A DNA stretch of 32,000 nucleotides from Staphylothermus hellenicus DSM 12710. Its GTDB lineage: Archaea; Thermoproteota; Thermoprotei_A; Sulfolobales; Desulfurococcaceae. Positions 6,967-32,000 of the stretch are shown here, in pieces. Location: assembly GCF_000092465.1 (NCBI RefSeq), contig NC_014205.1:150001-182000 (forward strand), given 5' to 3'. The position numbers were made by a program, and so were the translations under genes. The notes beneath the pieces are model-generated. The model worked only from the letters and a program-made list of their open reading frames with translations. It searched no databases and had not been told where the DNA came from. Numbering within the stretch: position 1 is the first letter of the stretch; every line of letters begins with the position of its first letter.

Positions 6967-7054
6967 GCGGGGGTGCCCGAGCATGGTCAAAGGGGTCGGG
7001 CTTAGGACCCGATGGCGTAGGCCTGCGTGGGTTCGAATCCCACCCCCCGCACCA
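6967..7054 (+). tRNA. tRNA-Leu (anticodon UAG), encoded CCA
   Basis: Acceptor stem GCGGGGG/CCCCCGC. Anticodon stem TCGGG/CCCGA with loop CTTAGGA. A long variable arm is present, the T-loop is GGTTCGAATCC, and the end is ACCA. Confidence 0.9.
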
Positions 7055-12208: not shown

Positions 12209-12359
<151 letters not shown>

Positions 12360-12430: not shown

Positions 12431-12506
12431 GGGCCCGTAGCCTAGCCCGGATCAGGGCGCCGGCCTTCGGAGCCGGAGATCCCGGGTTCGAATCCCGGCG
12501 GGCCCG
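12431..12506 (+). tRNA. tRNA-Arg (anticodon UCG)
   Basis: Acceptor stem GGGCCCG/CGGGCCC. Anticodon stem CCGGC/GCCGG with loop CTTCGGA. T-arm CCGGGTTCGAATCCCGG. No encoded CCA. Confidence 0.9.
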
Positions 12507-17627: not shown

Positions 17628-17652
17628 CTTTCAATTCTTTCTATGTTGTTAC
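17628..17652 (-). CRISPR. Orphan single CRISPR repeat (GTAACAACATAGAAAGAATTGAAAG on the minus strand)
   Basis: It is identical to the second repeat of the array at 21112-21136. It ends in ATTGAAAG, the crenarchaeal crRNA 5'-handle sequence. A leader-like sequence immediately precedes it on the minus strand. No further repeat is seen leftward. Confidence 0.7.
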
Positions 17653-17810
17653 TTTGGTTCGAATAAATTGCTACATTTTATTTTTTCTTCGAATCAGATA
17701 TATATGTTTTTCCATAATTGATCCATGCTTGATCCTGTTCGAACAATTATCTATAGACTTAATAGTATCTCTGACCCCCTTGAAGGGTTTGTGAAAAATA
17801 TTCGATTAGG
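17653..17810 (-). promoter_or_regulatory. CRISPR leader (left copy, minus-strand orientation)
   Basis: About 150 nt align by eye at roughly 80 percent identity to the reverse complement of 20885-21045. It abuts the orphan repeat, is AT-rich, and contains three TTCGAA palindromes. Confidence 0.6.
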
Positions 17811-18337: not shown

Positions 18338-19246
18338 TTGTCTATTATTATTGATTCTGATAGGGGTAGGAGGGTAGCGGAGATCCTATATAATGCTTAT
18401 TATACCACTGGTATTTTCGGGTATAGATCTCCTCCAGAATCTGTTTTGCCTAAGGGTATGGTGAGGGGCTCGCTTCAACATGTTTTGTTTGTTACATTAA
18501 CGGTTTCCATTGATTATATGAGGGATGCTCAAGCATTATGGGAGAGTGCTAGGAGGACTTTCGAGGATCCTATGACTAGGTATTTATTTGATCCCAAGGC
18601 ACTATATGAAACACCCATAAATAAGATTATGAGGGATATGTTGAAATATGGTTTAGCTAAGAGGCCTAGGAAGGACTCATATATTTGGAAAACAGTTGGT
18701 GCAACTTTTTATAAGAAGTGGGGAGGGGATCCACGCAGTTTTCTTAGAAGCTGTGGATGGGATGCACCAACTATTCTTAAACGGTTAAAAAGTGATACCC
18801 ACCTAGATAGGGGTCGTCTGGTTCCTGATTATCCCTATCTTAGAGGGGATAAGATTGGTCCATTATGGTTGAGAATGCTCTGGGATATTGTTGGTGTTAA
18901 GGATTTGAGGAATTTGGATAAAGTCCCTATTCCCGTAGATGTACATGTTGCTAGAGCAACGCTTGCAACAGGTGTTGTTAGGGGGAGGTTTAGTGGGAGG
19001 CTTGAGGATTTATTCGAATATATTAGGAGGGCTTGGTTCCTAAGCGTTAAGGGGTTAAAGGCTGGGGATAGATCCATGATCGCATTGGATCTGGATGAGC
19101 CCCTGTGGCACTTATCCAAATATGGGTGTTCTAGGAGAGATAAGGATACAGGTTATTGTCCGCTACAAAGTTTTTGTGTTGTTAGAGAATATTGTGTTAA
19201 GGGGAGGATCTGGATAAATAATGGATATGTGGTGATGGATACATGA
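18338..19246 (+). CDS. HhH-GPD-superfamily-like (endonuclease III-like) protein with a C-terminal 4-Cys cluster; putative DNA glycosylase
   Basis: 302 aa with a TTG start after GGAGG. YLRGDKIGPLWLRMLWDIVGV is a hairpin-helix-like segment, and VPIPVDVHVARATLATGVVRG is an EndoIII-style DxHVxR block. The C-terminus LWHLSKYGCSRRDKDTGYCPLQSFCVVREYC resembles an Fe-S cluster loop with unusual Cys spacing. By eye only. Confidence 0.5.
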   Translation: MSIIIDSDRGRRVAEILYNAYYTTGIFGYRSPPESVLPKGMVRGSLQHVLFVTLTVSIDYMRDAQALWESARRTFEDPMTRYLFDPKALYETPINKIMRDMLKYGLAKRPRKDSYIWKTVGATFYKKWGGDPRSFLRSCGWDAPTILKRLKSDTHLDRGRLVPDYPYLRGDKIGPLWLRMLWDIVGVKDLRNLDKVPIPVDVHVARATLATGVVRGRFSGRLEDLFEYIRRAWFLSVKGLKAGDRSMIALDLDEPLWHLSKYGCSRRDKDTGYCPLQSFCVVREYCVKGRIWINNGYVVMDT

Positions 19247-19698
19247 AAACACTATGTATTGTTCCTTGTGGGAAGAGGAAGATTTGGGATAAATACCCAA
19301 ACAAGGGCCCTACTAAGGCAAGATACGTATACATAGGAGCTTTCGCGAAGAAGTGTAGGGAATACGCTGAGAAATTCTGTCCAAACTCCTGGGTTATCTT
19401 ATCGGCGAAGCATGGATTCTTGTTCCCAGACGATATAGTTCCTGGACCATACAATGTCAGCTTCAACGATAAAAAGACAAACCCTATATCCATAGAAGAG
19501 CTCAAAGCACAAGCACATATGAAGGGGCTTTACAGATATGATCGAATAATAGTCTTAGCCGGGAGAAACTATGCAGAAATAGTCAAAAAAGTCTTCTCAA
19601 ATAAAGAAGTTGTTACTCCACTAAGCAAATATAAGGGATTAGGCTATATGATGCAAAAACTAAATGAAGCAATAAGGAGAGGAGTACCGCTCCACTAA
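19243..19698 (+). CDS. YaaA/DUF6884-like small protein
   Basis: 151 aa. Its ATG overlaps the upstream stop (ATGA, 19243-19246). It has an N-terminal CIVPCGKRK and WVILSAKHGFLFPDDIVPGPYNVSF, matching my recollection of the DUF6884 pattern (C-S/G-x-x-K ... ILSAKYGL..P...I.PYD). Confidence 0.5.
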   Translation: MKTLCIVPCGKRKIWDKYPNKGPTKARYVYIGAFAKKCREYAEKFCPNSWVILSAKHGFLFPDDIVPGPYNVSFNDKKTNPISIEELKAQAHMKGLYRYDRIIVLAGRNYAEIVKKVFSNKEVVTPLSKYKGLGYMMQKLNEAIRRGVPLH

Positions 19699-19817
19699 AA
19701 CACATTAGATCCAGCTGTATCATCATATACTTAAGTTGATAAAAATATATTACTTGGTCAAAGCACGGGAAACAAATATATCCCCTAAAACCTCTATATT
19801 ATACATGGTTAGATTTT

Positions 19818-20753
19818 TTGTTAAACCATTATTTTTGTATTAGGTGGTTAGTGTTGAATAAGATTTTAGTTTTCGGGATCATTTTTCTCCTAGTCTATGC
19901 TGAGGCTTCAGTATTTACTCCAATAAACAGTATGGTTACTGGTACGGATGTTTCGGGGGCTGGGAGGCCGAAGATATTGTTCATCTATTATTATTGGCTT
20001 CCAAACTATGGTCCAGCATATTGGTTTATACGTAATTTGTCAATGTATGGTGATGTAGTTTTTATCCGGGCAGATGCTCTAGCTAATCAATCGGATCAGT
20101 ATATTATGGATTATTTGAGACAATTCGACATATACGCTACCATTAATGCTGGTTATGGTCCCTGGCTTTGTCTGGTTGATTTTTGGAGTAAGTATCCGAG
20201 ACTAGTCAATATTATTAGGTTATTAGTTAGAGAGGAGGGGAAGAGTATTCTCGTCGTTGTAGCATCAACAAGTAATAGCCACCCAATCTCCGACATGGTT
20301 TATGCTGAATGTCTTGATACCCCGGATTATTGGATCAACTATGAGATCGCATCATCAAACATAACAGTGGGAATCAATAATATAACTGGTAGATCACTCC
20401 ACATACATCTCTACGGTGGAAAACCACTCATTATACTACCCAATAAACATGATTGGCTAAGTCGAAGAGCAGCATTAGCAGTATACGGATACTATGGGAA
20501 AGGAAAATACGCCGTATTAAGCATAGATCTATTCCAATCAAGCAACCACATAAGAGGAGACATTGAAAAACTATTATCAAACATAATACAATGGCTCACA
20601 AACAAGGAAACCCGAGAAAACAAAACAATCATAAACCCACCAATAGAAAACCTAACAATAACATCAACAATCCTCATAACACCACTAATAATCACCCTAA
20701 TAGGAGCATACATAATCAAACAACACAGAACAAACCCACATAAACAACCCTAA
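19818..20753 (+). CDS. Extracellular protein with signal peptide and C-terminal TM anchor, unknown function
   Basis: The likely start is the GTG at 19851, after AGGTGG (VLNKILVFGIIFLLVYAEA). The C-terminus ITSTILITPLIITLIGAYII followed by KQHR is a membrane anchor. Confidence 0.6.
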   Translation: MLNHYFCIRWLVLNKILVFGIIFLLVYAEASVFTPINSMVTGTDVSGAGRPKILFIYYYWLPNYGPAYWFIRNLSMYGDVVFIRADALANQSDQYIMDYLRQFDIYATINAGYGPWLCLVDFWSKYPRLVNIIRLLVREEGKSILVVVASTSNSHPISDMVYAECLDTPDYWINYEIASSNITVGINNITGRSLHIHLYGGKPLIILPNKHDWLSRRAALAVYGYYGKGKYAVLSIDLFQSSNHIRGDIEKLLSNIIQWLTNKETRENKTIINPPIENLTITSTILITPLIITLIGAYIIKQHRTNPHKQP

Positions 20754-20884: not shown

Positions 20885-21045
20885 TAGTCGAACAATTTAC
20901 ATTATACAAACCCGTCAAGGGGTCAAAGACACTATTTATCTTATAGTGAGCTGTTCGAACACGATCAAGCAAGGGATCAATTATAGAAAAGCATATATAT
21001 CGGGTTCGAAGAAAAATATAAATGTAACAATATATTCGAGGCAAT
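20885..21045 (+). promoter_or_regulatory. CRISPR leader (right copy, plus-strand orientation)
   Basis: Homologous to the reverse complement of 17653-17810. It directly precedes the first repeat at 21046 and contains TTCGAA at three positions plus variants. Confidence 0.6.
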
Positions 21046-21136
21046 GTAACAACCTAAAAAGAATTGAAAGCCTCTAAATCCATAAGCTTCCTGCAGCGAA
21101 CCTCCTCTTCAGTAACAACATAGAAAGAATTGAAAG
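21046..21136 (+). CRISPR. Vestigial CRISPR array: 2 repeats (25 nt) and 1 spacer (41 nt)
   Basis: Repeat 1, 21046-21070: GTAACAACCTAAAAAGAATTGAAAG. Spacer, 21071-21111: CCTCTAAATCCATAAGCTTCCTGCAGCGAACCTCCTCTTCA. Repeat 2, 21112-21136: GTAACAACATAGAAAGAATTGAAAG. The two repeats differ at 2 positions. Confidence 0.8.
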
Positions 21137-21258: not shown

Positions 21259-22602
21259 TTAAGCCTGCTTTATTTTTTCAATAATATTTTCTTCGGCTAT
21301 GTTTATGTGTTCATTGATGAGTTGGTCTAGTTCTTTTATTTTATTGATTTTTCTAAAGTTTAACGGTATTATTGCGACGTATTTGTTTTTGTCGTTTATA
21401 GGGATTGGTTTGTGTTGGTTGTTTGTTTTTTGTGTGTAGGTTGCGTTGTAGATTATTGCTCCTTTATCTACGTTGTACTCGTTCATGTATCCTAGTACTA
21501 TTCTTAGTTCTCTATAAATATCTTCTAAACTTCGTCTCTGCTTAGCATCCATAACAAATACTATTTCTTCACCGTCTCCCTTGTTAATTGTTATTGTTAT
21601 ATCTGGTCTACCAGCTTCAGGTCCCCCAATTACTTGTTTGTTTCTAGTAAGCCAGCTTTTATCGCTGAAGCCTTTGCTGTGATAGATCCTATAACTAATA
21701 TTTTCCCCGTTCTCCTCAACATTTATTTCTATAAATTCTCCCTTATGATCAACAATTATTTCCTTCACCCCTATCCGTTCTAGTTTTGATAGTAGAGCGT
21801 ATGTGGTTAGATAATGAGTGTAGATCTCGAATATTCTCTCAAGCTCTACTCCTACAATGGATCCTGTATGCTCAGGTTTTCCATGAACAGCGATCTCTTC
21901 CCCGATATTCATGATTGTTTGGAGATATTGTTTAAAACTTTTAGCGAGGAAATAATATCCATAGTTTCCGCGTTCTAGAACTGTGTCACATAGTTGTAGG
22001 AGTGAATCATAATCTTCTCTCTCAACTATACCTGCTAGTTCGGTTATCCAAGATACGCTACTATATGTTTCTCTTAGATCATCAAGTATTAAACCTATAA
22101 TCTTATTTAATAAATAGTTTTCAGCAGATACATTTTCTTCCAAATCCTCAATTATCTCCTTGATTTCCAAAGCAATATTCGCTAATAACAATGTCTCGGG
22201 TGAATCATATAATCTTTTATTAATACTTGATACTATTAAGAGTCTGCCACTACCGTATAGTGCTATTGTTTTTGGAAAATCTATTCTCCCCCTGGCAACA
22301 ATATCTATTCGATCCTCATAACTGGTTTCATAGATCAACTCTAACGGTATTCTTTTCAGAGTTTCTATAACATCTCTTATAGCTAGAACACGTGCAGTGA
22401 GCAAACCAGCCTTATAAGCATCCCTTAAAACACGGTCCTTTACTTCTCCAAAAAACTTTATAGGGTAACCCTTTACATAGCTGTAGAAGAGAAATAATCC
22501 TATAAGCCTAACAGTAACCATATACATGGATTCTAGGAGATCTTGATCTTTAGAACTTTGAGACAATATTACCGACCATTTCAATAAGTCCTTTATAATC
22601 AT
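21259..22602 (-). CDS. McrC-like PD-(D/E)xK nuclease subunit
   Basis: 447 aa, last gene of the operon and directly after the McrB-like gene. The C-terminal GRPDITITINKGDGEEIVFVMDAKQR fits a PD...(D/E)xK active site in the position seen in McrC. The track start overlaps the upstream gene by 53 nt; the internal Met at about 22527 (MYMVTV) is an alternative. Confidence 0.65.
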   Translation of the reverse strand: MIIKDLLKWSVILSQSSKDQDLLESMYMVTVRLIGLFLFYSYVKGYPIKFFGEVKDRVLRDAYKAGLLTARVLAIRDVIETLKRIPLELIYETSYEDRIDIVARGRIDFPKTIALYGSGRLLIVSSINKRLYDSPETLLLANIALEIKEIIEDLEENVSAENYLLNKIIGLILDDLRETYSSVSWITELAGIVEREDYDSLLQLCDTVLERGNYGYYFLAKSFKQYLQTIMNIGEEIAVHGKPEHTGSIVGVELERIFEIYTHYLTTYALLSKLERIGVKEIIVDHKGEFIEINVEENGENISYRIYHSKGFSDKSWLTRNKQVIGGPEAGRPDITITINKGDGEEIVFVMDAKQRRSLEDIYRELRIVLGYMNEYNVDKGAIIYNATYTQKTNNQHKPIPINDKNKYVAIIPLNFRKINKIKELDQLINEHINIAEENIIEKIKQA

Positions 22603-24268
22603 TTAGTTCTCCTGATTCCATAATCTTCTCTAATGCATCAATGTATTTCTTTGGAAGCATTATCTTAGATATCTCGGGATCAAGAATTGAAGCTAGAGAA
22701 CTAGATAATGCTTCATCAATAACATTCTTGATACTCTTCGAAGGATTCATGCTAATAAGATTATATGCATCAATAGCAGATTCAATTATATAAGATATTC
22801 CTAGAGGGAAGTCATTATTAATAAATATTCTATAGATTCTCGTTAACTCCTCAGCAACATCGCTAAGCCTCTGAGTATCAACATTACTGATCTCTTTAAG
22901 TACGTTGCTAGCTTTTCTCGAGACTATCTTCTTTAAAACTTCTTCATTAGCATTAGAGATTTTCTGCGGGAATACTCTTACAATATGGAATCTTCTAAGT
23001 AATGCATAACCTAGTGTGAACAAATGGGTTATATCCCACGTGTTAATTGTTGCTACTATTCTAAATCCCCAAGGCAACGTATTGTTTGCTTTAACATGTT
23101 TTAGTATTGTCTCAGCAGCATCATCTCTATCATCATAGTTTTTAATCTCATCGATAAGTGACTGGGGCAACTTCCATTGGCTAGGATCTATGCCTGGGTA
23201 TATTGTGAAGAATTCTGCTAAAACCTTATCAGCTTCGCAACGATTCAGTTCATCGATAAGCAATAATACACCTTTAAACCCCTTATTCTCACCAGACTTC
23301 TTATCCTCATCAGCTCTACTAATGTATTCAATATGTTTTGCAAGAGCTGATAGAAATACACCACTCTTCCACTTGAATCCTTTAGAAGAAATAATCGGTC
23401 CACCTATGAAATCATAGCGGGTCCACGTAGAAGAAGCAGTAGTGCTCACCAATTCATAATTGAGATATTTAGCTAGAAGCTCTGCTAAATACGATTTACC
23501 AGTACCCGGCGGCCCAACTAATAATAAGTGCTTACCCTTATTATATCCAGCAACAAGATCATCAAGGATCTCTTCAGAATAAAAACCATCATTATCGATC
23601 ACATGATTTTTGAACCCTTCATAATCAATAAGTATTGGATGCGAAGGTTTTGGCTTATGATATTCTTCTTTCATCCCCATAGAATGTATCTTCATGTACT
23701 CACTCTCCCTAAGGGATGCTAGGTACCAGCCCTGTTTTATGATATTCTCACTAATATTCTTGGTCTCTCCATAATTTATAGGATCTTCATATTCTTGGAA
23801 GTTAGATAACCTTAGTAAAAAGAAAGAAATACCGCTTATATTTCCTATTCTTTTTCTTATTTTTTCTTCTGCCCTTTCTAAATATTGATTTAAATCTATA
23901 TTTTTCTGAGTAGAGCTGTTTTTCTGGAGAAGACGCGTAAGCTCATTTCTGAGTTCATACCAGGTATATTCTTTAATGTTCTTATTATCTTCTTCTCGAA
24001 GAATCGATCTACCTATAAAAGCTTTTTTGACTTCTCCTTTCTTACTGTGAATATATATAGCTCTTGACCCCACATAATGTATGATTGTTAATTCACTGAA
24101 TTGTTTAAGGGATTTTATAATGGCATTATATTCTGCTGCATGACGACCCTTTATCGGCCCCCATAAAGCCACTCCTATATGAGCAGGAATAGGCAAACTC
24201 CAATTGTTTATTTCAACCCAGTATTTTGAAGGTTCTAATCTTTTATAGCTATACAAAATATTTTTCAC
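22550..24268 (-). CDS. McrB-like AAA+ GTPase/ATPase with a divergent N-terminal domain
   Basis: 572 aa. It has Walker A LLLVGPPGTGKSYLAELLA, Walker B plus the McrB-type NR motif VLLLIDELNRCEADKVLAEFF, then FRIVATINTWD and GYALLRRF. The first roughly 200 aa are unrelated to the ATPase core. Confidence 0.8.
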   Translation of the reverse strand: MKNILYSYKRLEPSKYWVEINNWSLPIPAHIGVALWGPIKGRHAAEYNAIIKSLKQFSELTIIHYVGSRAIYIHSKKGEVKKAFIGRSILREEDNKNIKEYTWYELRNELTRLLQKNSSTQKNIDLNQYLERAEEKIRKRIGNISGISFFLLRLSNFQEYEDPINYGETKNISENIIKQGWYLASLRESEYMKIHSMGMKEEYHKPKPSHPILIDYEGFKNHVIDNDGFYSEEILDDLVAGYNKGKHLLLVGPPGTGKSYLAELLAKYLNYELVSTTASSTWTRYDFIGGPIISSKGFKWKSGVFLSALAKHIEYISRADEDKKSGENKGFKGVLLLIDELNRCEADKVLAEFFTIYPGIDPSQWKLPQSLIDEIKNYDDRDDAAETILKHVKANNTLPWGFRIVATINTWDITHLFTLGYALLRRFHIVRVFPQKISNANEEVLKKIVSRKASNVLKEISNVDTQRLSDVAEELTRIYRIFINNDFPLGISYIIESAIDAYNLISMNPSKSIKNVIDEALSSSLASILDPEISKIMLPKKYIDALEKIMESGELNDYKGLIEMVGNIVSKF

Positions 24269-24711
24269 CTCTTATCTATTTCTAAAAGTATTCTTAAAGC
24301 CCTAGCTGGTCTAAGTATTCCCGGATATTTTCTTTCTCTAAATCTCTCAACAATTATTCCCGCCCAATACTTTAGATCTAGATATGTAAGTGTTTTAACC
24401 GCTTCCATTGCTTGGAGTTTTTTCTTATAAGTTCTTAAATTGCTAGTGATAACGGCATAGATTAATACTTTTGCATAAGTTTCCCAATTATCCGTTGTAA
24501 AAGTCATAATTTTTCTGCCGCCTTTCTTTTTGAAACCGCTTCTAAGAGCATATTGTATTAGTAATTGTGGATTACATCTAATTTTTACTTCTAATACTCC
24601 TCTACTCCTAGTTGTGCCAGCGTAGAATCTTGAAATTCCCATGTTGTTTCTAGAATAGATTACTAGGTAATATAGAGGCTTAGCTTCATCATCAATAGTA
24701 GAGCTCATCAC
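24265..24711 (-). CDS. Small operon protein, unknown function (occupies the slot of the small DUF3780-type partner in DUF1156/DUF499 clusters)
   Basis: 148-aa ORF with 4-nt overlaps to both neighbours (24708-24711 and 24265-24268), which implies translational coupling. It is basic, and I cannot place its family from sequence alone. Confidence 0.55.
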   Translation of the reverse strand: MMSSTIDDEAKPLYYLVIYSRNNMGISRFYAGTTRSRGVLEVKIRCNPQLLIQYALRSGFKKKGGRKIMTFTTDNWETYAKVLIYAVITSNLRTYKKKLQAMEAVKTLTYLDLKYWAGIIVERFRERKYPGILRPARALRILLEIDKR

Positions 24712-27700
24712 TTCCTCCTCACAATTGTAACTATTATATCGGCGTATCTAATGTATTTGTCAAGTATTCTTTTAAGAGTTGAATTGATAGTTATCTCTTT
24801 TGGAAATTCTGCTTCGAAGCTTCCCTCGACAAATATATTTGAACCCATAGACTCTAGTAGTTCGCTAACTACGTCATAGACTATTGCTGGATCAGCTTGT
24901 TTAAATAAAACATCGCTCACTCCATACTCTCGGCTTTTCACGTGGAGCTCCATTTTATTGACAATGAACACCTTCTCATCCGGTTTACTTAGTAATTCAG
25001 TTAATTTGTTAATGAGCTCCAGTATATCTCTATAATTCTTATTGCTAATTGAGCTCTTAATACTGATTAAAACATCTCCTTCTTCAAGAACCCCTGGTTC
25101 ATGAATATCAATAACACTAGTCTTAGGCTTAACAGTGATTATTTCCTCGTATGAGTTACCATTATCATCGATCGCCCTAATCGTTATCAATGTTTGTTGC
25201 CTGATCCTTGAACCATTTATTTTAATCCACGTCTTAAACGGTACTTGTCCTTCAAGAACTCCATGATCAGTTACTGCATCACTAGACACGGTGATTTTAA
25301 CATTGCCACCATAGTCTCCTAGAGGTTGAGCCTCAATTCTCACATCTACGCTTTCATCAGGTGAGATCTCAATATATGATGGCTCAACTACTAGGTTTAT
25401 CCCTGTTTTCAGAATCTTTTCCTCCTTAACAATGAAGCCGTCTCTAAGAATTATTTCCCAGTCTGGAAACTTTTCGATATCCTTAATTGAATACCTCTTA
25501 TTCCTGTATACAACGTAGTAGTTTAACTTGAGAATACCATTATCTATTCTTGTTCCGTCGTTTTCTTCTATATCGCTTTTGATCTCCTCTAGTATCTCCT
25601 TTAGCGCGTCTCGCCAATGCATTATAATGAAGCTTTCTTGTATTCTTGTTGGTTCTTCTCCTCTGTCCTTATCAGTAAATGATGTAATATCGTTTGGTGA
25701 ATATATGCGTTTAAAGTATCTTCTATTGAACTCGTCTATTAAGGCGATTTCTAGGTTTAATACACCCTCCTTGATGGCATCTTTAATTCTATCTTCTCTT
25801 ACCATAGGTAGTTCGGGCCTTGTCTTAAAGACATTGATAACGTCTCCAACACTGATCTTTCTCCCAGGTTTTATTTCAATTTCAACCTTGCTTAAATAAG
25901 TCTTTAATGATTCAAAATTTAATGATCTAACTATTTTACCAATGCTTGGAGAGCTTAGTGCTGAGACAACTTTTTCACTAATTGATTTATCAGATGATGT
26001 AGCATATGTTTTCTCAACAATTCTTCTAGAATCTTTAACTGCTGGATAATATATTTGATCAAAGAAGTTAAGAATATTTGTTAATAAGATGTTTTCGATC
26101 ATTCTTTTCTGGTACGATGCAATACTTCTCTCAATATCCTTGATCTCCTTGGCATAACCACTATACAGCTCATTTATTCTATCCATAATTATTTCTGCCG
26201 CTCTCAGAAGTGCTTGATACTCGAGAAGGGATTCGAGTTTATCCTTTGTCGAAATAGTTACTGCTACAACGGTATTAGCGTGTGTTCTCTCAATTCCTCT
26301 AAACTTATAGATTAGCTCTTCGATCTCCTTTGGCTTATTATATAGTATAGCAACCAGCTTATAGGAACTGCTATCAGGAACCTCAGCCTCCGACGCGTAT
26401 CTATAAACCGATATATTCTTTGCATCGAATATTTCAGCATATCTAAATCGTTCCATAGAATAGACACTAGCTTCTCGGGCTCTGCCTACTTCGATTAAAC
26501 GTGAAGTCATTAATTTATGTATATTCTCCATAAGCAAGTTCTCGACATGGCTCCTGTTTTCTTCTAAAATCTTTTTAGCTTCTCTTCTAATCCATTCCTT
26601 TATAGATGCAATTCTAGAATACCAGTATCTATCGGTTGATTCATCATAGTGTAGGAAGACAGTATAGTTACTGATCTTGATCTCTGATAATGCATCTACT
26701 ATATCTACCGGCTTATACCTATTAGATTCGAAGAATTTTGGTTCATAAACCATTTGAACGATTTCTTTGCTTGTTGGAAACACTGGTTCTGCTTTAAGAC
26801 TATCATAGGGATAAGTTGATAAGAATATTGTTCTTAGAATTATCTTTATTAGGTTCTTCCTTTCTGATTCTTTAGGGATTTTGTTATCCAGTGCAACTAT
26901 TTCGTCAGCATATATTCTCTGGTAATCACTATAATCTCCCATGAAGAATAGGCCTTCAACACCGAGCTCGACAGGGTCAATATGCCACGGCATAATCAGT
27001 ACTGGATCCTCGTTGCTCCTCAATAGTTTCCTTAACAGTAGCCTAGATATCCTCATTAAGAACCTGGTCCTATTACCAGTAACTCTTTCAGCGATTTCCC
27101 TGAGCACACTGATATAGGAGGGGTGGAAGGGATAGGTCTTTTTAATGTCTTCTCTGAGCTTACTAGTATCTCCAAATACCTCCTTGAACTCGTTATAAGT
27201 ACTTATAAGTTTACGGATCTCATTTTTTGCCTCATCAACTCTGACCTCACTGAAAAGCCTCTTCTTTACAACATTGAAGAGTTCAGTACTCCTAGATATT
27301 GGGGCATATACATTGCCTGCTACACGTAATAGAGCATCCAATAGATCTCTTACAAATTCGCTTATCCTCTTATACCTTGGCTGAGGCTCTATTCCTCCAG
27401 GCTTCTTTTCCGCAGCAATAGTAATTACTAATACATTGTTTGTTGACTCAACTGCTTGCGCTAGTCTATCAAAGAACCTAACTACCTCGCTCACATATCC
27501 CTCCTTATTCTTATACTTTGATGAAAGAATAGAATCTATATAGTCAAGGATCTCGTCTACAAGAATAACAACTTTGCGGCCTTGCAAAAGTTTTTTGAGA
27601 ACACTTTGATCAGGGCATGTCTCGTTTTTATCATCCCTCTCCACAAGCTCGTATCTCTTCAATCTATCTGCTAGATAGCCCCATAAAGTCTTTATTTTAC

Positions 27701-28127
27701 GCGATCCCCCCTCTAATGGCTTTATCGGGCTCGGAGCTAATCTAGAATCCTTACCATATATAACTACTACTTCAACACCCTTAACATTCCTATATAACTT
27801 ATAGACTTCATCTGAGAGGAGATACGTGTAGCTTGGATTTAAAACAGCGTGATAAATAGTTAGTAATGTATGTGTCTTACCTCCGCCGAAAAAAGCTATT
27901 ATTGGATAAACCTTACGTCCCTTCCCCTCAGTTAGAGTATTCCCTATCTCCGATAGAATAGTCTTCATACTATCCGTAAGATATGTTCTTTCAAAAAACT
28001 CTCTGGGATCCATATATATTCTAGGAGCCGTACCATAAACAACCTCATAGATCTCAGGCGCTAGTTTCTCGTCAAAACTAGGATCTAGAACATCCTCCCT
28101 TACAGAAACATGTTGTTTAAAACCCAA
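24708..28127 (-). CDS. Large P-loop ATPase, DUF499/COG1483-like
   Basis: 1139 aa. The N-terminal ...YGTAPRIYMDPREFFERTYLTDSMKTIL...VYPIIAFFGGGKTHTLLTIYHAV matches the DUF499 N-terminal and Walker A signature as I recall it. Walker B-like VVILVDEILDY follows. Confidence 0.75.
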   Translation of the reverse strand: MGFKQHVSVREDVLDPSFDEKLAPEIYEVVYGTAPRIYMDPREFFERTYLTDSMKTILSEIGNTLTEGKGRKVYPIIAFFGGGKTHTLLTIYHAVLNPSYTYLLSDEVYKLYRNVKGVEVVVIYGKDSRLAPSPIKPLEGGSRKIKTLWGYLADRLKRYELVERDDKNETCPDQSVLKKLLQGRKVVILVDEILDYIDSILSSKYKNKEGYVSEVVRFFDRLAQAVESTNNVLVITIAAEKKPGGIEPQPRYKRISEFVRDLLDALLRVAGNVYAPISRSTELFNVVKKRLFSEVRVDEAKNEIRKLISTYNEFKEVFGDTSKLREDIKKTYPFHPSYISVLREIAERVTGNRTRFLMRISRLLLRKLLRSNEDPVLIMPWHIDPVELGVEGLFFMGDYSDYQRIYADEIVALDNKIPKESERKNLIKIILRTIFLSTYPYDSLKAEPVFPTSKEIVQMVYEPKFFESNRYKPVDIVDALSEIKISNYTVFLHYDESTDRYWYSRIASIKEWIRREAKKILEENRSHVENLLMENIHKLMTSRLIEVGRAREASVYSMERFRYAEIFDAKNISVYRYASEAEVPDSSSYKLVAILYNKPKEIEELIYKFRGIERTHANTVVAVTISTKDKLESLLEYQALLRAAEIIMDRINELYSGYAKEIKDIERSIASYQKRMIENILLTNILNFFDQIYYPAVKDSRRIVEKTYATSSDKSISEKVVSALSSPSIGKIVRSLNFESLKTYLSKVEIEIKPGRKISVGDVINVFKTRPELPMVREDRIKDAIKEGVLNLEIALIDEFNRRYFKRIYSPNDITSFTDKDRGEEPTRIQESFIIMHWRDALKEILEEIKSDIEENDGTRIDNGILKLNYYVVYRNKRYSIKDIEKFPDWEIILRDGFIVKEEKILKTGINLVVEPSYIEISPDESVDVRIEAQPLGDYGGNVKITVSSDAVTDHGVLEGQVPFKTWIKINGSRIRQQTLITIRAIDDNGNSYEEIITVKPKTSVIDIHEPGVLEEGDVLISIKSSISNKNYRDILELINKLTELLSKPDEKVFIVNKMELHVKSREYGVSDVLFKQADPAIVYDVVSELLESMGSNIFVEGSFEAEFPKEITINSTLKRILDKYIRYADIIVTIVRRK

Positions 28128-28158
28128 GGCTTTTATCCCCCTATCATATATATTTTAT

Positions 28159-31100
28159 TTACTTTATGTAGTTATCAATCGTTCTATAACTAGGCTTAGC
28201 CGGGCCACATTTAACCCCCATATATTCAAGTATTCTCATAGAAAGTTGCTGCTCTGGATCGCCTTCGAAATAGCTGCAGATAACATATGCTATACCCTTA
28301 GCTTCATTAATAAAGCTAGGCCCACCTGGTTGTTCTTGAAGCTTCGAAACAAGTTTCTCAAATGTGCTTTTATCATATTTAGAAGCATAGTATTCGAGAA
28401 CGTGAAGTGCATCAATACTGTTAGTTATCCTAGGCTTATCCGGATTAATTCCTCTACGCTTCTCCAAGAAAATCCTCAACTTACTGGGTTCAATACTTAG
28501 TGGCGAATTCAATACATACTCTTTTCTACTAGTAGATGCCGCTCGCTTCTCAATCACTATCCTCTTCTTAACCATATCACCCACGTTTATACCTGAAGCA
28601 ATAGATAATATAGTTATACTGCTAGCATCCAGTTTCTTCTCCTTAGAAAGAAGTTTACGAGCAGTCTCAGGATCTCTTAAGAACACTAGCTTGAATAAGA
28701 GATAGAATAGAGCTTCTGGAGAACTAACATTGAACGTAGACATACCAACCAAGTAATCTATTAATCCGCGAGCAGCGGCAGGAAACACTATTTCACGTAT
28801 AATTCTGCCAACAGACTCAATACCTCCCTCGTTATCCTTAATCCCCAAGAAGCTACTAAGCTTATCCCTCTTCTCAGGAAACACTATTTTATCATAGCTT
28901 GTTGCAACTTCTAAAACCCTGCCCATCACGCCTATGAAAGCATCTAATCCTCTATGTTGTTTCCAAACATCCCCTGCGTAGCTTTTAGCAGCTTCCACCG
29001 CTTCGCGATATACATCGCTGAAAACACCTACTCGATCACTATGAGATCTTTTTCTCCAAACAATTACCAAGCTAGTATCTAAGCTACGCTTACCCCTCTT
29101 AACAATAGATTGTTTACTCTCTGTATCAAGAGGCCATGTAGCAGTTATCTTAAAGCCTCCTCGAGCCCATCCAGCCCACAATAGATCTCTCCAAGCATCA
29201 GGATCAGTATGATTATAATATGTAACAAGTAATCCATCATCCTTCAAGTGCTCCCTCATAGCTATGAAAGAATCACCGAGAAGCTCTAAGTAGCGTTCAT
29301 AAGCATATTTTTTAGCATCCTGATTATTTCCAACATAATCCCTGTAGCGTCCAGGATTAAAACTAGCCTCACGCTTAGCAAAAGATTCCCACTGAGTGCT
29401 AATAGGCTTCCAAACAGCACCAACACGCCTAAAAAACAGGTCCTGGTGAAACCTCGGAGCAAGCCTACCATTCTCAACATCACTCAAAGCACGCTTCAAC
29501 CAAATGAAATAAAAATCACTAAGCTCAGCATAAGGAACATCATCACGATAAGGAGGATCAGTAACGATCAAATCAAACTTCTCATCAGAGGCTACATTGT
29601 TAAACACAGCAGCATCATCCAGCAAAACGTCAACCCTATACTTATTACTAGGAATAACTGAAACGAGGTACAACAAGCTCCTAATAAGAGCATTTAATGA
29701 CCTACTCCAAGATCCAGCAAGGTTGTTAATGGGTCTAGCATCCACCCAATTCCAACTCATAGCTATACCTCTTACCGACATGCTCGATGCGATCTTGAAC
29801 CATGTACTATCCCATATATTAACTATAGAATTCAAATATACGAGCTTACATAACGCTATTGCTAAGTATGTTGTTACTGCTTCTGCGTACCTGAATGCCT
29901 CTTCCCTGGTCCAGCCTTTTTTTAGCTTTTCTTCCTCTATTTTCTTGCCAACTTCTCGTATTAGCTTGACTATTTTGATTAAGGTTAGGAGTTGTCGTGG
30001 ATTAAATAGCTTATAGAATTTATCAATACCCCATACAATTGTATGATAGGTGGATGAACAGTATGGCTCTATTGGCTCAGTTGGTAGGTCTGGGTCTTTC
30101 CATATTTGTTTTAGTTTTTCTAGTGCTTTCCATAGTTTTTCTTGGTCTTCTTGTGTTGCCGGTGCGAATTCTATTTCTTTACCCCTAGTTTTTACCTTGA
30201 CTAGTATTCTGGGTCTTGCAGGTGCTTTTTTGAGTTCTTCTAGGCTTGTTTCTCCGGACAAGTATTTTTCGAGGAGTGTGTTCCATTGTTTTAGAGCATA
30301 TTTGGGGTAGAATATGACTTTTTTTCTGAGTGATGAGGGTAGGTTTGATTTTTCGGGATAGTGTTGTCCGGTTTCTGGGTTTATGTATCCTATTTTGTTT
30401 TTGCAGTATAGGCATGTTGCTTTCTCTCTTCTCGCATCAATGTTTTTCTCTGGGACTTCGAGCTCTATGGTTTGTTTTCCTCTAGGTATGATTATTTTGT
30501 TTGATTTAATCTTATCTTTGTCAAGGAAGGGGATTTTGTATTCTTTATTTATATCTACTACCTCAATATCTACTCTATCGTTTCTTTTCACTGGCTTCAT
30601 ATAGGCTATTCTAGTATACTTATTATTTTTCTTCACTCTTGCCAGCCAATAGTTTCCTATTAGTGGTGTATATCTTTTACACCGGGGGCATTGAATCTCC
30701 CATGTTCCTATGTATATTGCTGTATCCTCGTCGTATAGTTCTTTTAGATCCTGATCATTTTTTAATTGTTCAATAATCCATTTACCATATTTTTCCACAT
30801 CTTTAACTAAATTTTTCCATTTAGGATCGCTAACTGCTTTTAGAGGATATTCTAGGACTGCTTTCAAGAATACGGCTGCTGTTGGTAATAGTTCTACTGC
30901 TATTACTTTTCCCACGCCTAGTCTTAGTGCTTCTAGGGGTATTGAGCCGAAGCCAGCGAATGGATCTAGCAGACTTGTTTCTTTAAACAATTTCTTTAAA
31001 CCAGCTAGTTCTCCTTGAAAAACCGGGTTAAACCTGTGCGGTGTTTTCTTGTCTAGTCTTAGAATGTATTGTTTAAATGCTTCTGGATCGATCTTGTCTG

Positions 31101-31170
31101 CTGGTATTATTGATCCCGCTATTACTGCTCTTGCTGTTATTAATGGTTTACGTGTCCACCAGAAAACCAT
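28159..31170 (-). CDS. Zn-ribbon-containing N6-adenine-type DNA methyltransferase, DUF1156/COG1743-like
   Basis: 1003 aa from the track ATG.
- DUF1156-type N-terminus: FWWTRKPLITARAVI.
- SAM motif I: LLDPFAGFGSIPLEALRLG.
- Zn ribbon: CPRC...CLYC.
- Motif IV: LIVTDPPYRDDVPY.
The frame stays open and family-like for 35 more codons upstream (to 31275) but has no canonical start there. Confidence 0.85.
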   Translation of the reverse strand: MVFWWTRKPLITARAVIAGSIIPADKIDPEAFKQYILRLDKKTPHRFNPVFQGELAGLKKLFKETSLLDPFAGFGSIPLEALRLGVGKVIAVELLPTAAVFLKAVLEYPLKAVSDPKWKNLVKDVEKYGKWIIEQLKNDQDLKELYDEDTAIYIGTWEIQCPRCKRYTPLIGNYWLARVKKNNKYTRIAYMKPVKRNDRVDIEVVDINKEYKIPFLDKDKIKSNKIIIPRGKQTIELEVPEKNIDARREKATCLYCKNKIGYINPETGQHYPEKSNLPSSLRKKVIFYPKYALKQWNTLLEKYLSGETSLEELKKAPARPRILVKVKTRGKEIEFAPATQEDQEKLWKALEKLKQIWKDPDLPTEPIEPYCSSTYHTIVWGIDKFYKLFNPRQLLTLIKIVKLIREVGKKIEEEKLKKGWTREEAFRYAEAVTTYLAIALCKLVYLNSIVNIWDSTWFKIASSMSVRGIAMSWNWVDARPINNLAGSWSRSLNALIRSLLYLVSVIPSNKYRVDVLLDDAAVFNNVASDEKFDLIVTDPPYRDDVPYAELSDFYFIWLKRALSDVENGRLAPRFHQDLFFRRVGAVWKPISTQWESFAKREASFNPGRYRDYVGNNQDAKKYAYERYLELLGDSFIAMREHLKDDGLLVTYYNHTDPDAWRDLLWAGWARGGFKITATWPLDTESKQSIVKRGKRSLDTSLVIVWRKRSHSDRVGVFSDVYREAVEAAKSYAGDVWKQHRGLDAFIGVMGRVLEVATSYDKIVFPEKRDKLSSFLGIKDNEGGIESVGRIIREIVFPAAARGLIDYLVGMSTFNVSSPEALFYLLFKLVFLRDPETARKLLSKEKKLDASSITILSIASGINVGDMVKKRIVIEKRAASTSRKEYVLNSPLSIEPSKLRIFLEKRRGINPDKPRITNSIDALHVLEYYASKYDKSTFEKLVSKLQEQPGGPSFINEAKGIAYVICSYFEGDPEQQLSMRILEYMGVKCGPAKPSYRTIDNYIK

Positions 31171-31364
31171 TTCCCAGTATGGGGGTCTGCCTGGTCCTTT
31201 TTCAGAGATGGCTTTTTCTGAGATCTCGATGCTTGGAAAGGATGGGGTCTCTATTAGTTTCTTTTCCAGAATACCTCACCTATTACAGTGTTTTCTTTCT
31301 ATAATTTTTATATTCTGCCTTATAGGTAAATACTTTTCTCGGAAAACCCTATTAGGGCTTTATT

Positions 31365-32000
31365 GTGTTCTTTGGTGATCCTGTTTTGGATCCGTGGAAA
31401 AATATGCCTGTTCACAGAATATTTTCGTTTGTAGAGCATGGTTTATTGCCTGGTATTGTTGACGAGTTTTTCGTTCTAGCTGAGGAGATTGGTTGTAGCC
31501 TAATAGTTGATCCCTTTATTGGTGGAGGAGTTGTTACTGCTGAAAGTATTCGTAGAGGCTTCAAAAGAGAAGATATTGGCTAGATTCCTAGAAATACTTT
31601 AGGAAACAACTAAGCCATATATTCCTACACTGAGAGGCTGAAAAAAATATTATGTTCCAGAACACTTGGAAAAATAGGATTGATTAGGGCAGTAGTTGAG
31701 AATATAAAAGGTGATCTCAAATCATTACTGCTAACGGTGCTTGGGAGAATAGCTGATGAATATTCCCTTCTCAAAAGAACCCCTGCTCCAAGATTTAAGG
31801 GGGAGCCTCCTAGAAGTGATCCTGTAGAAAAATATGTTGAGATACTAGAAGAAGCTCTAAATGATCTAACCAAGGCTGAACCCAGGGGTTCAGCTATATT
31901 ATTACTAGCTGATTCTACCGAATGGCTTCCCGAACACATATGTGGATTACTAACCAGCCCCCCATTCGCAAACAATATTGACTATATAAGGCATACACAG
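31365..32000 (+). pseudogene. Second DNA methyltransferase (motif I DPFIGGG, motif IV SPPF) interrupted by two in-frame stops; continues past the right edge
   Basis: Track ORF 31365..31583 ends ...LIVDPFIGGGVVTAESIRRGFKREDIG*. The same frame continues IPRNTLGNN* (TAG 31581-31583, TAA 31611-31613). It then stays open to the window end: AIYSYTERL...PAPRFKGEPPRSDPVEKYVEILEEALNDL...ICGLLTSPPFANNIDYIRHTQ. It is divergent from the DUF1156-like gene. Confidence 0.55.

Follow-up and report, generated by a model that had tools for sequence, protein, structure and literature searches.

Five genes of the hyperthermophilic crenarchaeon Staphylothermus hellenicus DSM 12710, lying at 21259-31275 in a 32,000-nt stretch of its chromosome (the window; NC_014205.1, positions 150,001 to 182,000), form an operon that joins the core of a known family of antiviral systems to an McrBC pair. 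They are five co-directional and tightly packed minus-strand open reading frames (ORFs) in the ORF listing and encode, in this order, a DUF1156 methyltransferase, a DUF499 ATPase, a small protein of 148 aa, an McrB-like AAA+ protein and an McrC-like nuclease (Table 1). By their sequences, the first three (hereafter the trio) correspond to the core of the DUF499-centred systems known as BREX-related (BR) or Hma, and the McrBC pair occupies the place in which the relatives encode a helicase. We read the locus as an archaeal DUF499 BR (Hma-type) operon whose effector half has been exchanged and in which McrBC would act as the translocase-nuclease arm, and we put the probability of this reading at roughly 45%. 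The Staphylothermus operon is a new and rare variant of a known system, found in three genomes of one lineage. An earlier note on this DNA, made from the sequence alone, had described the five genes as one unit and quoted a series of motifs; the ORFs lie where it placed them, every motif was located in the sequences of the methyltransferase, DUF499, McrB-like and McrC-like proteins, and the organization as an operon is upheld.

The BR/Hma/archaeal COG1743-DUF499 family has been described before (PMC12839542, PMC7641849, PMC11232893). BR systems come in three types, which combine the DUF499 ATPase with a DUF1156 N6-methylase and a Swi2/Snf2 helicase that is usually fused to a nuclease (Rakesh & Krishnan 2026, PMC12839542), and BREX-related/Hma systems are reported from 3592 taxa (PMC12839542). 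In the Hma system (HmaA/B/C), the helicase-nuclease HmaA defends against T4. An archaeal operon with the order COG1743, DUF499 and SWI2/SNF2-nuclease, optionally followed by EVE, was reported by Bell 2020 (PMC7641849).

McrBC in the helicase slot of archaeal DUF499 loci

For a census of archaeal DUF499 loci, an alignment of 20 DUF499 proteins served as the query against one genome per species, and the genes of the resulting 58 loci were called by tblastn with the window proteins and a Methanocaldococcus helicase; loci with at least 2.5 kb of sequence after DUF499 were taken as evaluable (n = 43). The scan returned no Staphylothermus genomes, and the absence of the helicase from S. hellenicus and S. 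marinus is therefore stated at the level of the locus. A DUF1156 methylase is present in 54 of the 58 loci, and an SNF2 helicase follows downstream on the same strand in 41/43 evaluable ones, both exceptions being DUF499 fragments. The usual archaeal order is methyltransferase, DUF499, small gene and SNF2. Hence, the earlier note was right that the DUF1156-DUF499 pair is usually drawn with a helicase, as the literature (PMC7641849, PMC12839542) and the 41 loci agree, and right again that McrBC stands in its place: the pair occupies exactly the SNF2 slot of these relatives. No McrB- or McrC-like gene was found in any of the 58 loci.

The canonical 3′ half contains more than the helicase. Immediately after SNF2, 23 of the 58 loci have a gene of about 420 aa for a metallo-β-lactamase/RMMBL (β-CASP-like) protein. 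In Methanocaldococcus (L009), a standalone EVE gene comes right after SNF2 (5.5e-29), and five further loci have a standalone EVE gene elsewhere within the 10-kb flanks. Given the lactamase and EVE genes beside SNF2, the canonical 3′ half is a motor plus a separate nuclease and/or reader. Examples of the lactamase gene are found at L034:16771-18036, L013:9981-11234 and L025:7924-9222; the words lactamase, MBL and CASP do not occur in the 2026 BR paper (PMC12839542).

The McrBC pair was found in the helicase slot only in S. hellenicus, S. marinus (locus L001) and one metagenome-assembled genome (MAG L003). S. marinus is a close relative (identity to the window proteins of 83% for the methyltransferase, 87% for DUF499, 91% for the small protein and 80% for McrC), and L003 is a distant one (55% for DUF499, 48% for McrB and 40% for McrC; 5-nt gap and 26-nt overlap). 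Five-gene order and tight coupling are the same in both, and since the L003 DUF499 protein is just 55% identical, a chance juxtaposition does not account for the arrangement. In all three genomes, McrB starts at most 8 nt past the small gene with its Shine-Dalgarno motif inside that gene, and the McrB-McrC overlap measures 26-53 nt. The L003 and window copies of all five genes have intact ORFs and motifs and are 40-63% identical. A search of the window and of the sequence following the trio turned up neither an SNF2 gene nor a remnant of one, and this favors an exchange of the effector half, because the operon would otherwise encode no effector.

Gene identities, start sites and junctions

Table 1. 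Features of the operon, in the order of transcription (window positions)
Feature	Position	Strand	Remarks
TATA-like A/T-rich box AATATAAAAATTATAG	31299..31314	-	about 30 nt upstream of the methyltransferase start; sequence only
GGTGA Shine-Dalgarno-like motif	31276..31280	-	6 nt ahead of the CTG start; spacing shared with S. marinus (L001) and L003
DUF1156-type (COG1743, HmaB-like) DNA methyltransferase	28159..31269	-	1036 aa from CTG; Pfam, PADLOC, NCBIfam
Motif I, DPFAGFG	30946-30966	-	methyltransferase
Zn-ribbon, CPRC	30679-30690	-	methyltransferase
Zn-ribbon, CLYC	30403-30414	-	methyltransferase
Motif IV, DPPY	29548-29559	-	methyltransferase
Methyltransferase/DUF499 gap	28128-28158	-	31 nt, A/T-rich
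DUF499 ORC/Cdc6-like AAA+/STAND ATPase (HmaC-like)	24708..28127	-	1139 aa, TTG start
Walker A, GGGKTH	27870-27887	-	DUF499
Walker B, VILVDE	27552-27569	-	DUF499
Conserved small protein	24265..24711	-	147/148 aa; follows DUF499 in this archaeal family
McrB-type AAA+ NTPase	22550..24268	-	568 aa (TTG start, 24256) or 572 aa (GTG start, 24268)
N-terminal domain	23650-24256	-	McrB; S. marinus counterpart L001:8326-8900
Walker A, GPPGTGKS	23492-23515	-	McrB
Walker B, LIDELNR	23240-23260	-	McrB
NxxD signature, NTWD	23033-23044	-	McrB
RRF arginine finger, LLRRF	22988-23002	-	McrB
McrC-like nuclease	21259..22602	-	447 aa (420 aa in the public annotation, which begins at 22521); PD-(D/E)xK core at the C-terminus
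GRPDITI	21592-21612	-	McrC
MDAKQR	21535-21552	-	McrC

Pfam, PADLOC and NCBIfam agree that the first protein is a DUF1156 methyltransferase, as the earlier note had proposed: DUF1156 matches with 29.5 bits (37.8 bits after extension of the ORF to 31275), the PADLOC matches are MTase_II (2e-237) and HmaB (3e-49), and the NCBIfam model is named "anti-phage-associated DUF1156". An FWWTRKP motif is also present. The ORF is open to 31275, with its first canonical ATG at 31170. The 33 codons 5′ of this ATG supply the conserved first half of the DUF1156 domain, and homologues from many archaea have N-termini that align with them. Between the stop that bounds the ORF, which is the in-frame TGA of the GGTGA motif, and the conserved block, a CTG is the sole codon common to the window, S. 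marinus and L003; it occupies the position of the initiator Met of the other homologues and lies 6 nt after GGTGA in each of the three genomes. This start region is found at 31267-31280 (-) in the window, at L001:1290-1400 and at L003:4230-4346. From the shared codon, its initiator-Met position, the GGTGA spacing and the higher Pfam score it follows that CTG 31269 rather than ATG 31170 is the most likely start, which would give a protein of 1036 aa. The public calls (1003/1005 aa) appear to begin 33 codons late and to lose half of the DUF1156 domain.

The assignment of the 1139-aa protein to DUF499 is borne out by a full-length Pfam match (1244 bits, profile positions 9-1018 of 1024), and PADLOC matches HmaC (2e-44). 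Residues G81-H86 and D191/E192 are invariant in the alignment of 20 homologues. A faster divergence of DUF499 after the change of effector was looked for and not seen, as DUF499 is 28% identical to the proteins of other lineages, which is the median for the family; since the clade is not unusually diverged, its sequences carry no signal of an adaptation of DUF499 to a new partner.

The small protein belongs to the DUF499 core, because its family sits directly after DUF499 in 47 ORFs across loci L001-L064 (jackhmmer), and the gene is present almost throughout this archaeal DUF499 family as its fourth component. It has no Pfam match above threshold and no PADLOC or NCBIfam match. DUF3780, a family that the earlier note had brought up, is not its identity by sequence: neither the 148-aa protein nor 10 members of its family matched the sequence profile at E ≤ 1. 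The AlphaFold2 model shows an alpha+beta fold with high confidence (pLDDT 90, pTM 0.86), and a fold search of solved structures in the PDB found none that resembles it. We presume that the protein is an adaptor or a reader.

The fourth protein is an McrB-like AAA+ protein, in line with the earlier assignment. It matches Pfam AAA_5 (1.5e-16), and the best named NCBIfam model is that of E. coli McrB, with 1e-06 and thus far below the equivalog cutoff; in BLAST, its alignment to E. coli McrB spans the entire AAA+ core (E 4e-13). All motifs are in register with those of E. coli McrB (GPPGTGKS/GPPGVGKT, IDELNR/IDEINR, NTWD/NTAD and LLRRF/LRRRF). Residues 11-198 match PDB entry 6N0S (E 8e-39), and the 6N0S sequence shows 100% identity to residues 3-180 of the protein that S. 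marinus encodes at this operon position. Indeed, 6N0S, the published S. marinus McrB (SmMcrB), is the S. marinus ortholog of the window gene. Its N-terminal domain is called PUA-like/EVE in a paper title and in review text, and the N-terminal 200 residues or so of the window protein likewise form a PUA/EVE-like DNA-binding domain. This domain was seen only in the DUF499-linked McrB proteins, whereas the stand-alone relatives align over the AAA+ domain only. Between S. hellenicus and S. marinus, it is only about 30-63% identical, compared to 77-94% for the AAA+ part and 80-91% for the other operon proteins, and this fast divergence suggests diversifying selection or domain exchange.

The fifth protein, identical to Shell_0196 of S. 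hellenicus DSM 12710, has no Pfam match above threshold, neither to McrBC nor to DUF2357, although PDDEXK_7 and Mrr_cat match weakly. Its family is very small, with 9 representatives among 1.84 billion proteins. The R-P-D...D-x-K core is invariant in 10 family members, an upstream glutamate is also conserved, and the gene comes directly after a McrB-like AAA+ gene in every relative for which there is upstream sequence; motif and position alike bear out the McrC-like PD-(D/E)xK assignment of the earlier note. The relative P0124 scores above the Pfam threshold for DUF2357 (26.7 versus 23.3 bits) and another, P0126, matches weakly, whereas the window protein is unmatched; DUF2357 is the N-terminal domain by which McrC engages the McrB hexamer and, together with PDDEXK_7, makes up the McrC architecture in the Bell 2024 census. 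With hhalign, the motif falls on TDITI...VDAKYY of E. coli McrC (E 0.0024, but a probability of only 12%). Proof of McrC identity by structure was attempted and dropped, since the AlphaFold2 model reaches a pLDDT of 65, with low confidence in the N-terminal half, and a Foldseek search of the PDB returned noise. We therefore accept the protein as "McrC-like" on motif, context and transitive evidence rather than on structure.

Closer inspection of the junctions refines the picture. The 31-nt gap between the methyltransferase and DUF499 genes is as the earlier note had given it. About 20-30 nt ahead of the DUF499 TTG start, it holds AAAATATATAT, followed by a GGGGG run; this stretch may serve as an archaeal TATA box inside the operon, or it may be no more than a ribosome-binding region. 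The two 4-nt overlaps of the earlier note hold in part: a GTGA overlap is possible at both junctions, but DUF499 and the small gene may overlap by only 1 nt (TGATG; the public call of 147 aa), and McrB more likely starts at the TTG 8 nt downstream (24256) than at the GTG within the overlap (24268). The TTG start is the more plausible one because a GGTGA Shine-Dalgarno motif for it sits within the 3′ end of the small gene and because the public calls and the numbering of the crystallized S. marinus domain agree with it. The translational coupling of McrBC to the methyltransferase that had been proposed does not hold; McrBC is coupled to the 148-aa gene instead. The 53-nt overlap of McrB and McrC, so far listed as possible, is probably real, since the 27-residue N-terminal extension of McrC that it implies is kept in S. 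marinus and L003 and aligns to the N-termini of distant relatives. Upstream of the operon, AATATAAAAATTATAG is a candidate operon promoter.

The effector arm and its alternatives

In our model, the 5′ half of the operon (methyltransferase, DUF499 and small protein) would be a sensing-and-modifying core. The DUF1156 methyltransferase, an enzyme of the N6-adenine type, would mark host DNA, and DUF499 and the small protein would scan DNA and, where it is foreign or lacks the mark, license an attack. McrB hexamers would then load via their N-terminal domain and bind McrC, and the complex would translocate by NTP hydrolysis until McrC cuts. The sequences themselves show which domains and catalytic motifs are present, how tightly the operon is packed, and that the positional replacement is conserved in three genomes. 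We infer that McrBC is controlled by the DUF499/methyltransferase module, or that the host is protected from McrBC by it, as we do for all biochemical steps. Several lines of evidence favor an exchange of the effector half. The replacement is positionally exact and two-for-two, a motor and a nuclease, with an EVE-type reader in both versions, so that the PUA/EVE-like domain of McrB parallels the EVE partnership of the canonical system (Bell 2020). The tight coupling is kept across deep divergence while the core genes are under purifying selection, as is indicated by the trio, whose genes are untruncated and retain their catalytic motifs in the four diverged genomes that carry it and show 36-63% identity between the window and L003 or a further MAG, L005, without frameshifts. 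Finally, there is precedent for McrB/McrC-like restriction arms in the methylase-bearing systems LlaJI, LlaI and BsuMI.

Taken one step further, the trio might be a portable "mark-and-sense" chassis that drives unrelated translocase-nuclease cassettes and of which Staphylothermus has captured an McrBC version. We hold this broader idea tentatively, as a plausible guess somewhat short of even odds. If true, it would be the first externally controlled McrBC, licensed by an ORC-like ATPase and kept off self DNA by adenine methylation, and it would explain the atypical reader domain of the published S. marinus McrB.

A number of observations weigh against an exchanged effector and for a different view, in which two independent defence layers are co-transcribed, an autonomous Type IV McrBC behind a DUF499/methyltransferase module. 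The PUA/EVE-like domain would then read viral DNA modifications, among which the host DUF1156 methylation would not figure; the trio would act by nuclease-free BREX-like replication interference or together with other genes nearby; and the layers would be complementary, as in BREX with BrxU or in the hsd-mcrBC immigration control region of E. coli. First, the McrBC pair is an autonomous module elsewhere, given that its metagenomic McrC-like relatives lie behind a McrB-like gene and that their upstream sequence, of up to 8.8 kb, contains neither DUF499 nor DUF1156 nor the small gene. Second, the MAG L005, a more distant member of the window's DUF499 clade (43% identity), keeps the trio without McrBC or SNF2; no remnant of either was found there, and remnants of SNF2, of a second McrBC pair and of lactamase genes were absent from the window and from the sequence downstream of the L005 trio. 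The intact L005 trio means that the trio can persist without an McrBC effector. Third, S. marinus has a second, paralogous McrB/McrC-like pair directly after the first one (L001:11642-14606), whose McrB has a weak EVE match at the N-terminus and which is followed by an integrase fragment. This pair, which was not found in the S. hellenicus window, argues for a simple accretion of McrBC modules in the island. Furthermore, the fast evolution of the McrB N-terminal domain is what is expected of a self-sufficient target reader, and Hma and BREX loci often host embedded Type IV enzymes or inserted defence genes. The location of E. coli mcrBC just downstream of hsdSM on the same strand fits independent layers as well.

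A further candidate for the role of effector lies upstream. Just past the end of the window at 32000 (L007:2306-5682), S. hellenicus encodes a 591-aa Cas4-like PD-(D/E)xK protein and a 535-aa SF1 helicase (AAA_11/AAA_12), in genes that overlap by 7 nt and run on the strand of the operon about 1.3 kb upstream of the methyltransferase. The set is kept in all four genomes with an SNF2-less trio (S. hellenicus, S. marinus, L003 and L005) and is absent from all SNF2-type loci. The earlier statement that no helicase is present thus stands for the operon and the window but not for the neighbourhood. The SF1 helicase and its Cas4-like partner may be an alternative effector of the trio, which also counts against the exchange, and independent layers could include them in that role. 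On the other hand, they are separated from the operon by an oppositely oriented Type II-like methylase gene, together with which they may form a restriction-modification-like unit of their own. Against independent layers also stands that the McrBC pair fills the very slot of the helicase, at most 8 nt behind the small gene, leaving no room for a promoter of its own, that this arrangement is kept in a lineage with a DUF499 protein only 55% identical, and that the trio would otherwise lack an operon-encoded effector, unlike the 41/43 relatives. On balance, we regard two independent layers as a serious contender, with a chance of somewhat over one in three.

It is also conceivable that a LlaJI-like restriction-modification pair is embedded in the operon. 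Its reader, the N-terminal domain of McrB, would recognize the unmodified site of the methyltransferase, McrBC would cut unmethylated copies, and sensing would not fall to DUF499 and the small protein, whose role would be accessory or regulatory. The McrB/McrC homologues of LlaJI, LlaI and BsuMI do restrict unmodified, site-specific targets that are protected by cognate methylases, Bell 2024 finds McrBC-methyltransferase associations to be prevalent and probably ancestral, and a relative of the McrC-like family matches DUF2357 and, weakly, PDDEXK_7. However, the N-terminal domain is PUA/EVE-like (homologous to 6N0S) and not of the B3 type that reads the LlaJI site, there is a single DUF1156 methylase as opposed to two LlaJI methylases, and this methylase is inherited with DUF499 (54/58 loci) and not with McrBC. 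Moreover, the two Staphylothermus species share 83% identity in their methylases yet have strongly different N-terminal domains. We consider such a pair unlikely.

Least probable of all, in our estimate, is a decaying remnant, that is, a DUF499 module that has lost both its helicase and its role in defence, with the methylase left as an orphan or epigenetic enzyme and McrBC read through from the same promoter. The helicase is absent, the methylase gene next door (375 aa) no longer has an intact frame in S. hellenicus, and the island holds CRISPR remnants. In contrast, the core genes are full length with intact motifs in the four diverged genomes, their 83-91% identity between the two Staphylothermus species speaks against decay, and the frameshift-free identities to L003 and L005 given above are those of genes under purifying selection.

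Several neighbouring features complete the description of the island. The divergent Type II-like methylase gene runs from 31365 to 32000 (+) in the window and beyond (L007:5705-6763). It is intact in S. marinus, L003 and L005 (370-375 aa) and is split by an in-frame stop in S. hellenicus into ORFs of 72 aa (DPFIGGG) and 247 aa, where it is likely a pseudogene. PglZ matched none of the five operon proteins, and the flanking ORFs are unrelated. On the other side of the operon, a 25-nt CRISPR repeat (Rfam CRISPR-DR27) occurs in three copies, at 17628-17652 (+), 21046-21070 (-) and 21112-21136 (-), the latter two separated by a 41-nt spacer. The two sites (17628-17778 (+) and 20919-21136 (-)) are each joined to an inverted leader-like flank of about 150 nt, the flanks being 79-86% complementary, and these mini-arrays face each other across 3.1 kb, one of them ending 123 nt after the McrC stop codon. 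Three ORFs of 302, 151 and 311 aa lie between the inverted CRISPR-like ends (18338-20753 (+)), an odd position between paired repeat/leader remnants; the 302-aa protein matches no family, the 151-aa one is DUF6884 (1.5e-16), and the 311-aa one is probably a membrane protein. Three tRNA genes on the plus strand (6967-7051, 12209-12356 and 12431-12506), none of which adjoins the operon, were also found; the 148-nt match at 12209-12356 probably contains an intron.

Comparison with known systems

The earlier note had called the linkage of McrBC to a methyltransferase paradoxical. This view is not sustained. Associations of McrBC with methyltransferases were found to be "particularly prevalent", "surprising" and "likely ancestral" by Bell et al. 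(2024), who deferred their description to a later paper; McrB/McrC-like subunits of LlaJI, LlaI and BsuMI restrict unmodified DNA while methylases protect the host; and E. coli mcrBC lies beside hsdSM. As LlaJI, LlaI and BsuMI act against DNA without the host mark, McrBC plus a methylase is a workable logic. The claim that the arrangement is undescribed survives in part: the combination of McrBC and methylase has been reported, but a DUF499/DUF1156 core with McrBC in the helicase slot was not found described in the literature searched. McrB and McrC are never mentioned in the 2026 BR paper (PMC12839542), and Staphylothermus, McrB and AAA_5 have no entry in the portions of its supplements that were available.

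The variant is of interest for several reasons. It supplies the genomic context for the N-terminal structure of S. marinus McrB (6N0S), and it is a concrete case of the McrBC-methyltransferase association that was flagged but not described in the 2024 census. For the coupling of the DUF499 ATPase and the methylase to an effector in BR/Hma systems, the swap of SNF2 for McrBC, a motor-nuclease of well-understood structure and enzymology, offers a natural comparison. If McrBC here depends on either DUF499 or the small protein, or if DUF1156 methylation blocks it, the core would be a generic sensor with a swappable effector; if the two halves are independent, the locus would be another defence island with stacked layers.

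The operon shares with the BR/Hma systems a DUF1156 N6-type methylase with a Zn-finger target recognition domain insert, the adjoining full-length DUF499 ORC/Cdc6-like ATPase, the gene order, in which DUF499 is followed by a small conserved gene, and the association with a PUA/EVE-type reader. It differs from them in that it lacks the Swi2/Snf2 helicase, one of the three defining core genes, and has an McrB AAA+ protein and McrC in the position of the helicase(-nuclease). Furthermore, unlike BR Type-3, it carries no PglZ or iSTAND markers, and unlike BR Type-2, its small protein is not DUF3780 by sequence.

With canonical McrBC, which cleaves modified DNA only and depends on GTP (E. coli, the YTH-McrB of Thermococcus gammatolerans and S. 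marinus 6N0S), the pair has in common the Walker A/B, NxxD and RRF motifs, a variable N-terminal reader and a downstream overlapping gene for a PD-DxK nuclease. However, it does not form a two-gene unit but represents genes 4 and 5 behind a methyltransferase and an ORC-like ATPase, and its McrC is very divergent, with no Pfam McrBC/DUF2357 match of its own. LlaJI, LlaI and BsuMI resemble the operon in that an McrB-like NTPase and an McrC-like nuclease are encoded with one or more methyltransferases. They are bacterial, lack DUF499 and DUF1156, and have a B3-type site-specific module and two dedicated methylases, in contrast to the PUA-like N-terminal domain and the one DUF1156 methylase of the window.

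Finally, there are BREX and Hma loci with a Type IV enzyme (BrxU/GmrSD) embedded in them, and Hma loci are hotspots for inserted independent defence genes; in these loci, as in E. coli hsd-mcrBC, a methylation system lies beside a modification-dependent nuclease, as it does here. In all these cases the methylation system nevertheless keeps its full gene set, whereas the window operon misses the helicase and has the Type IV-like pair in its stead.

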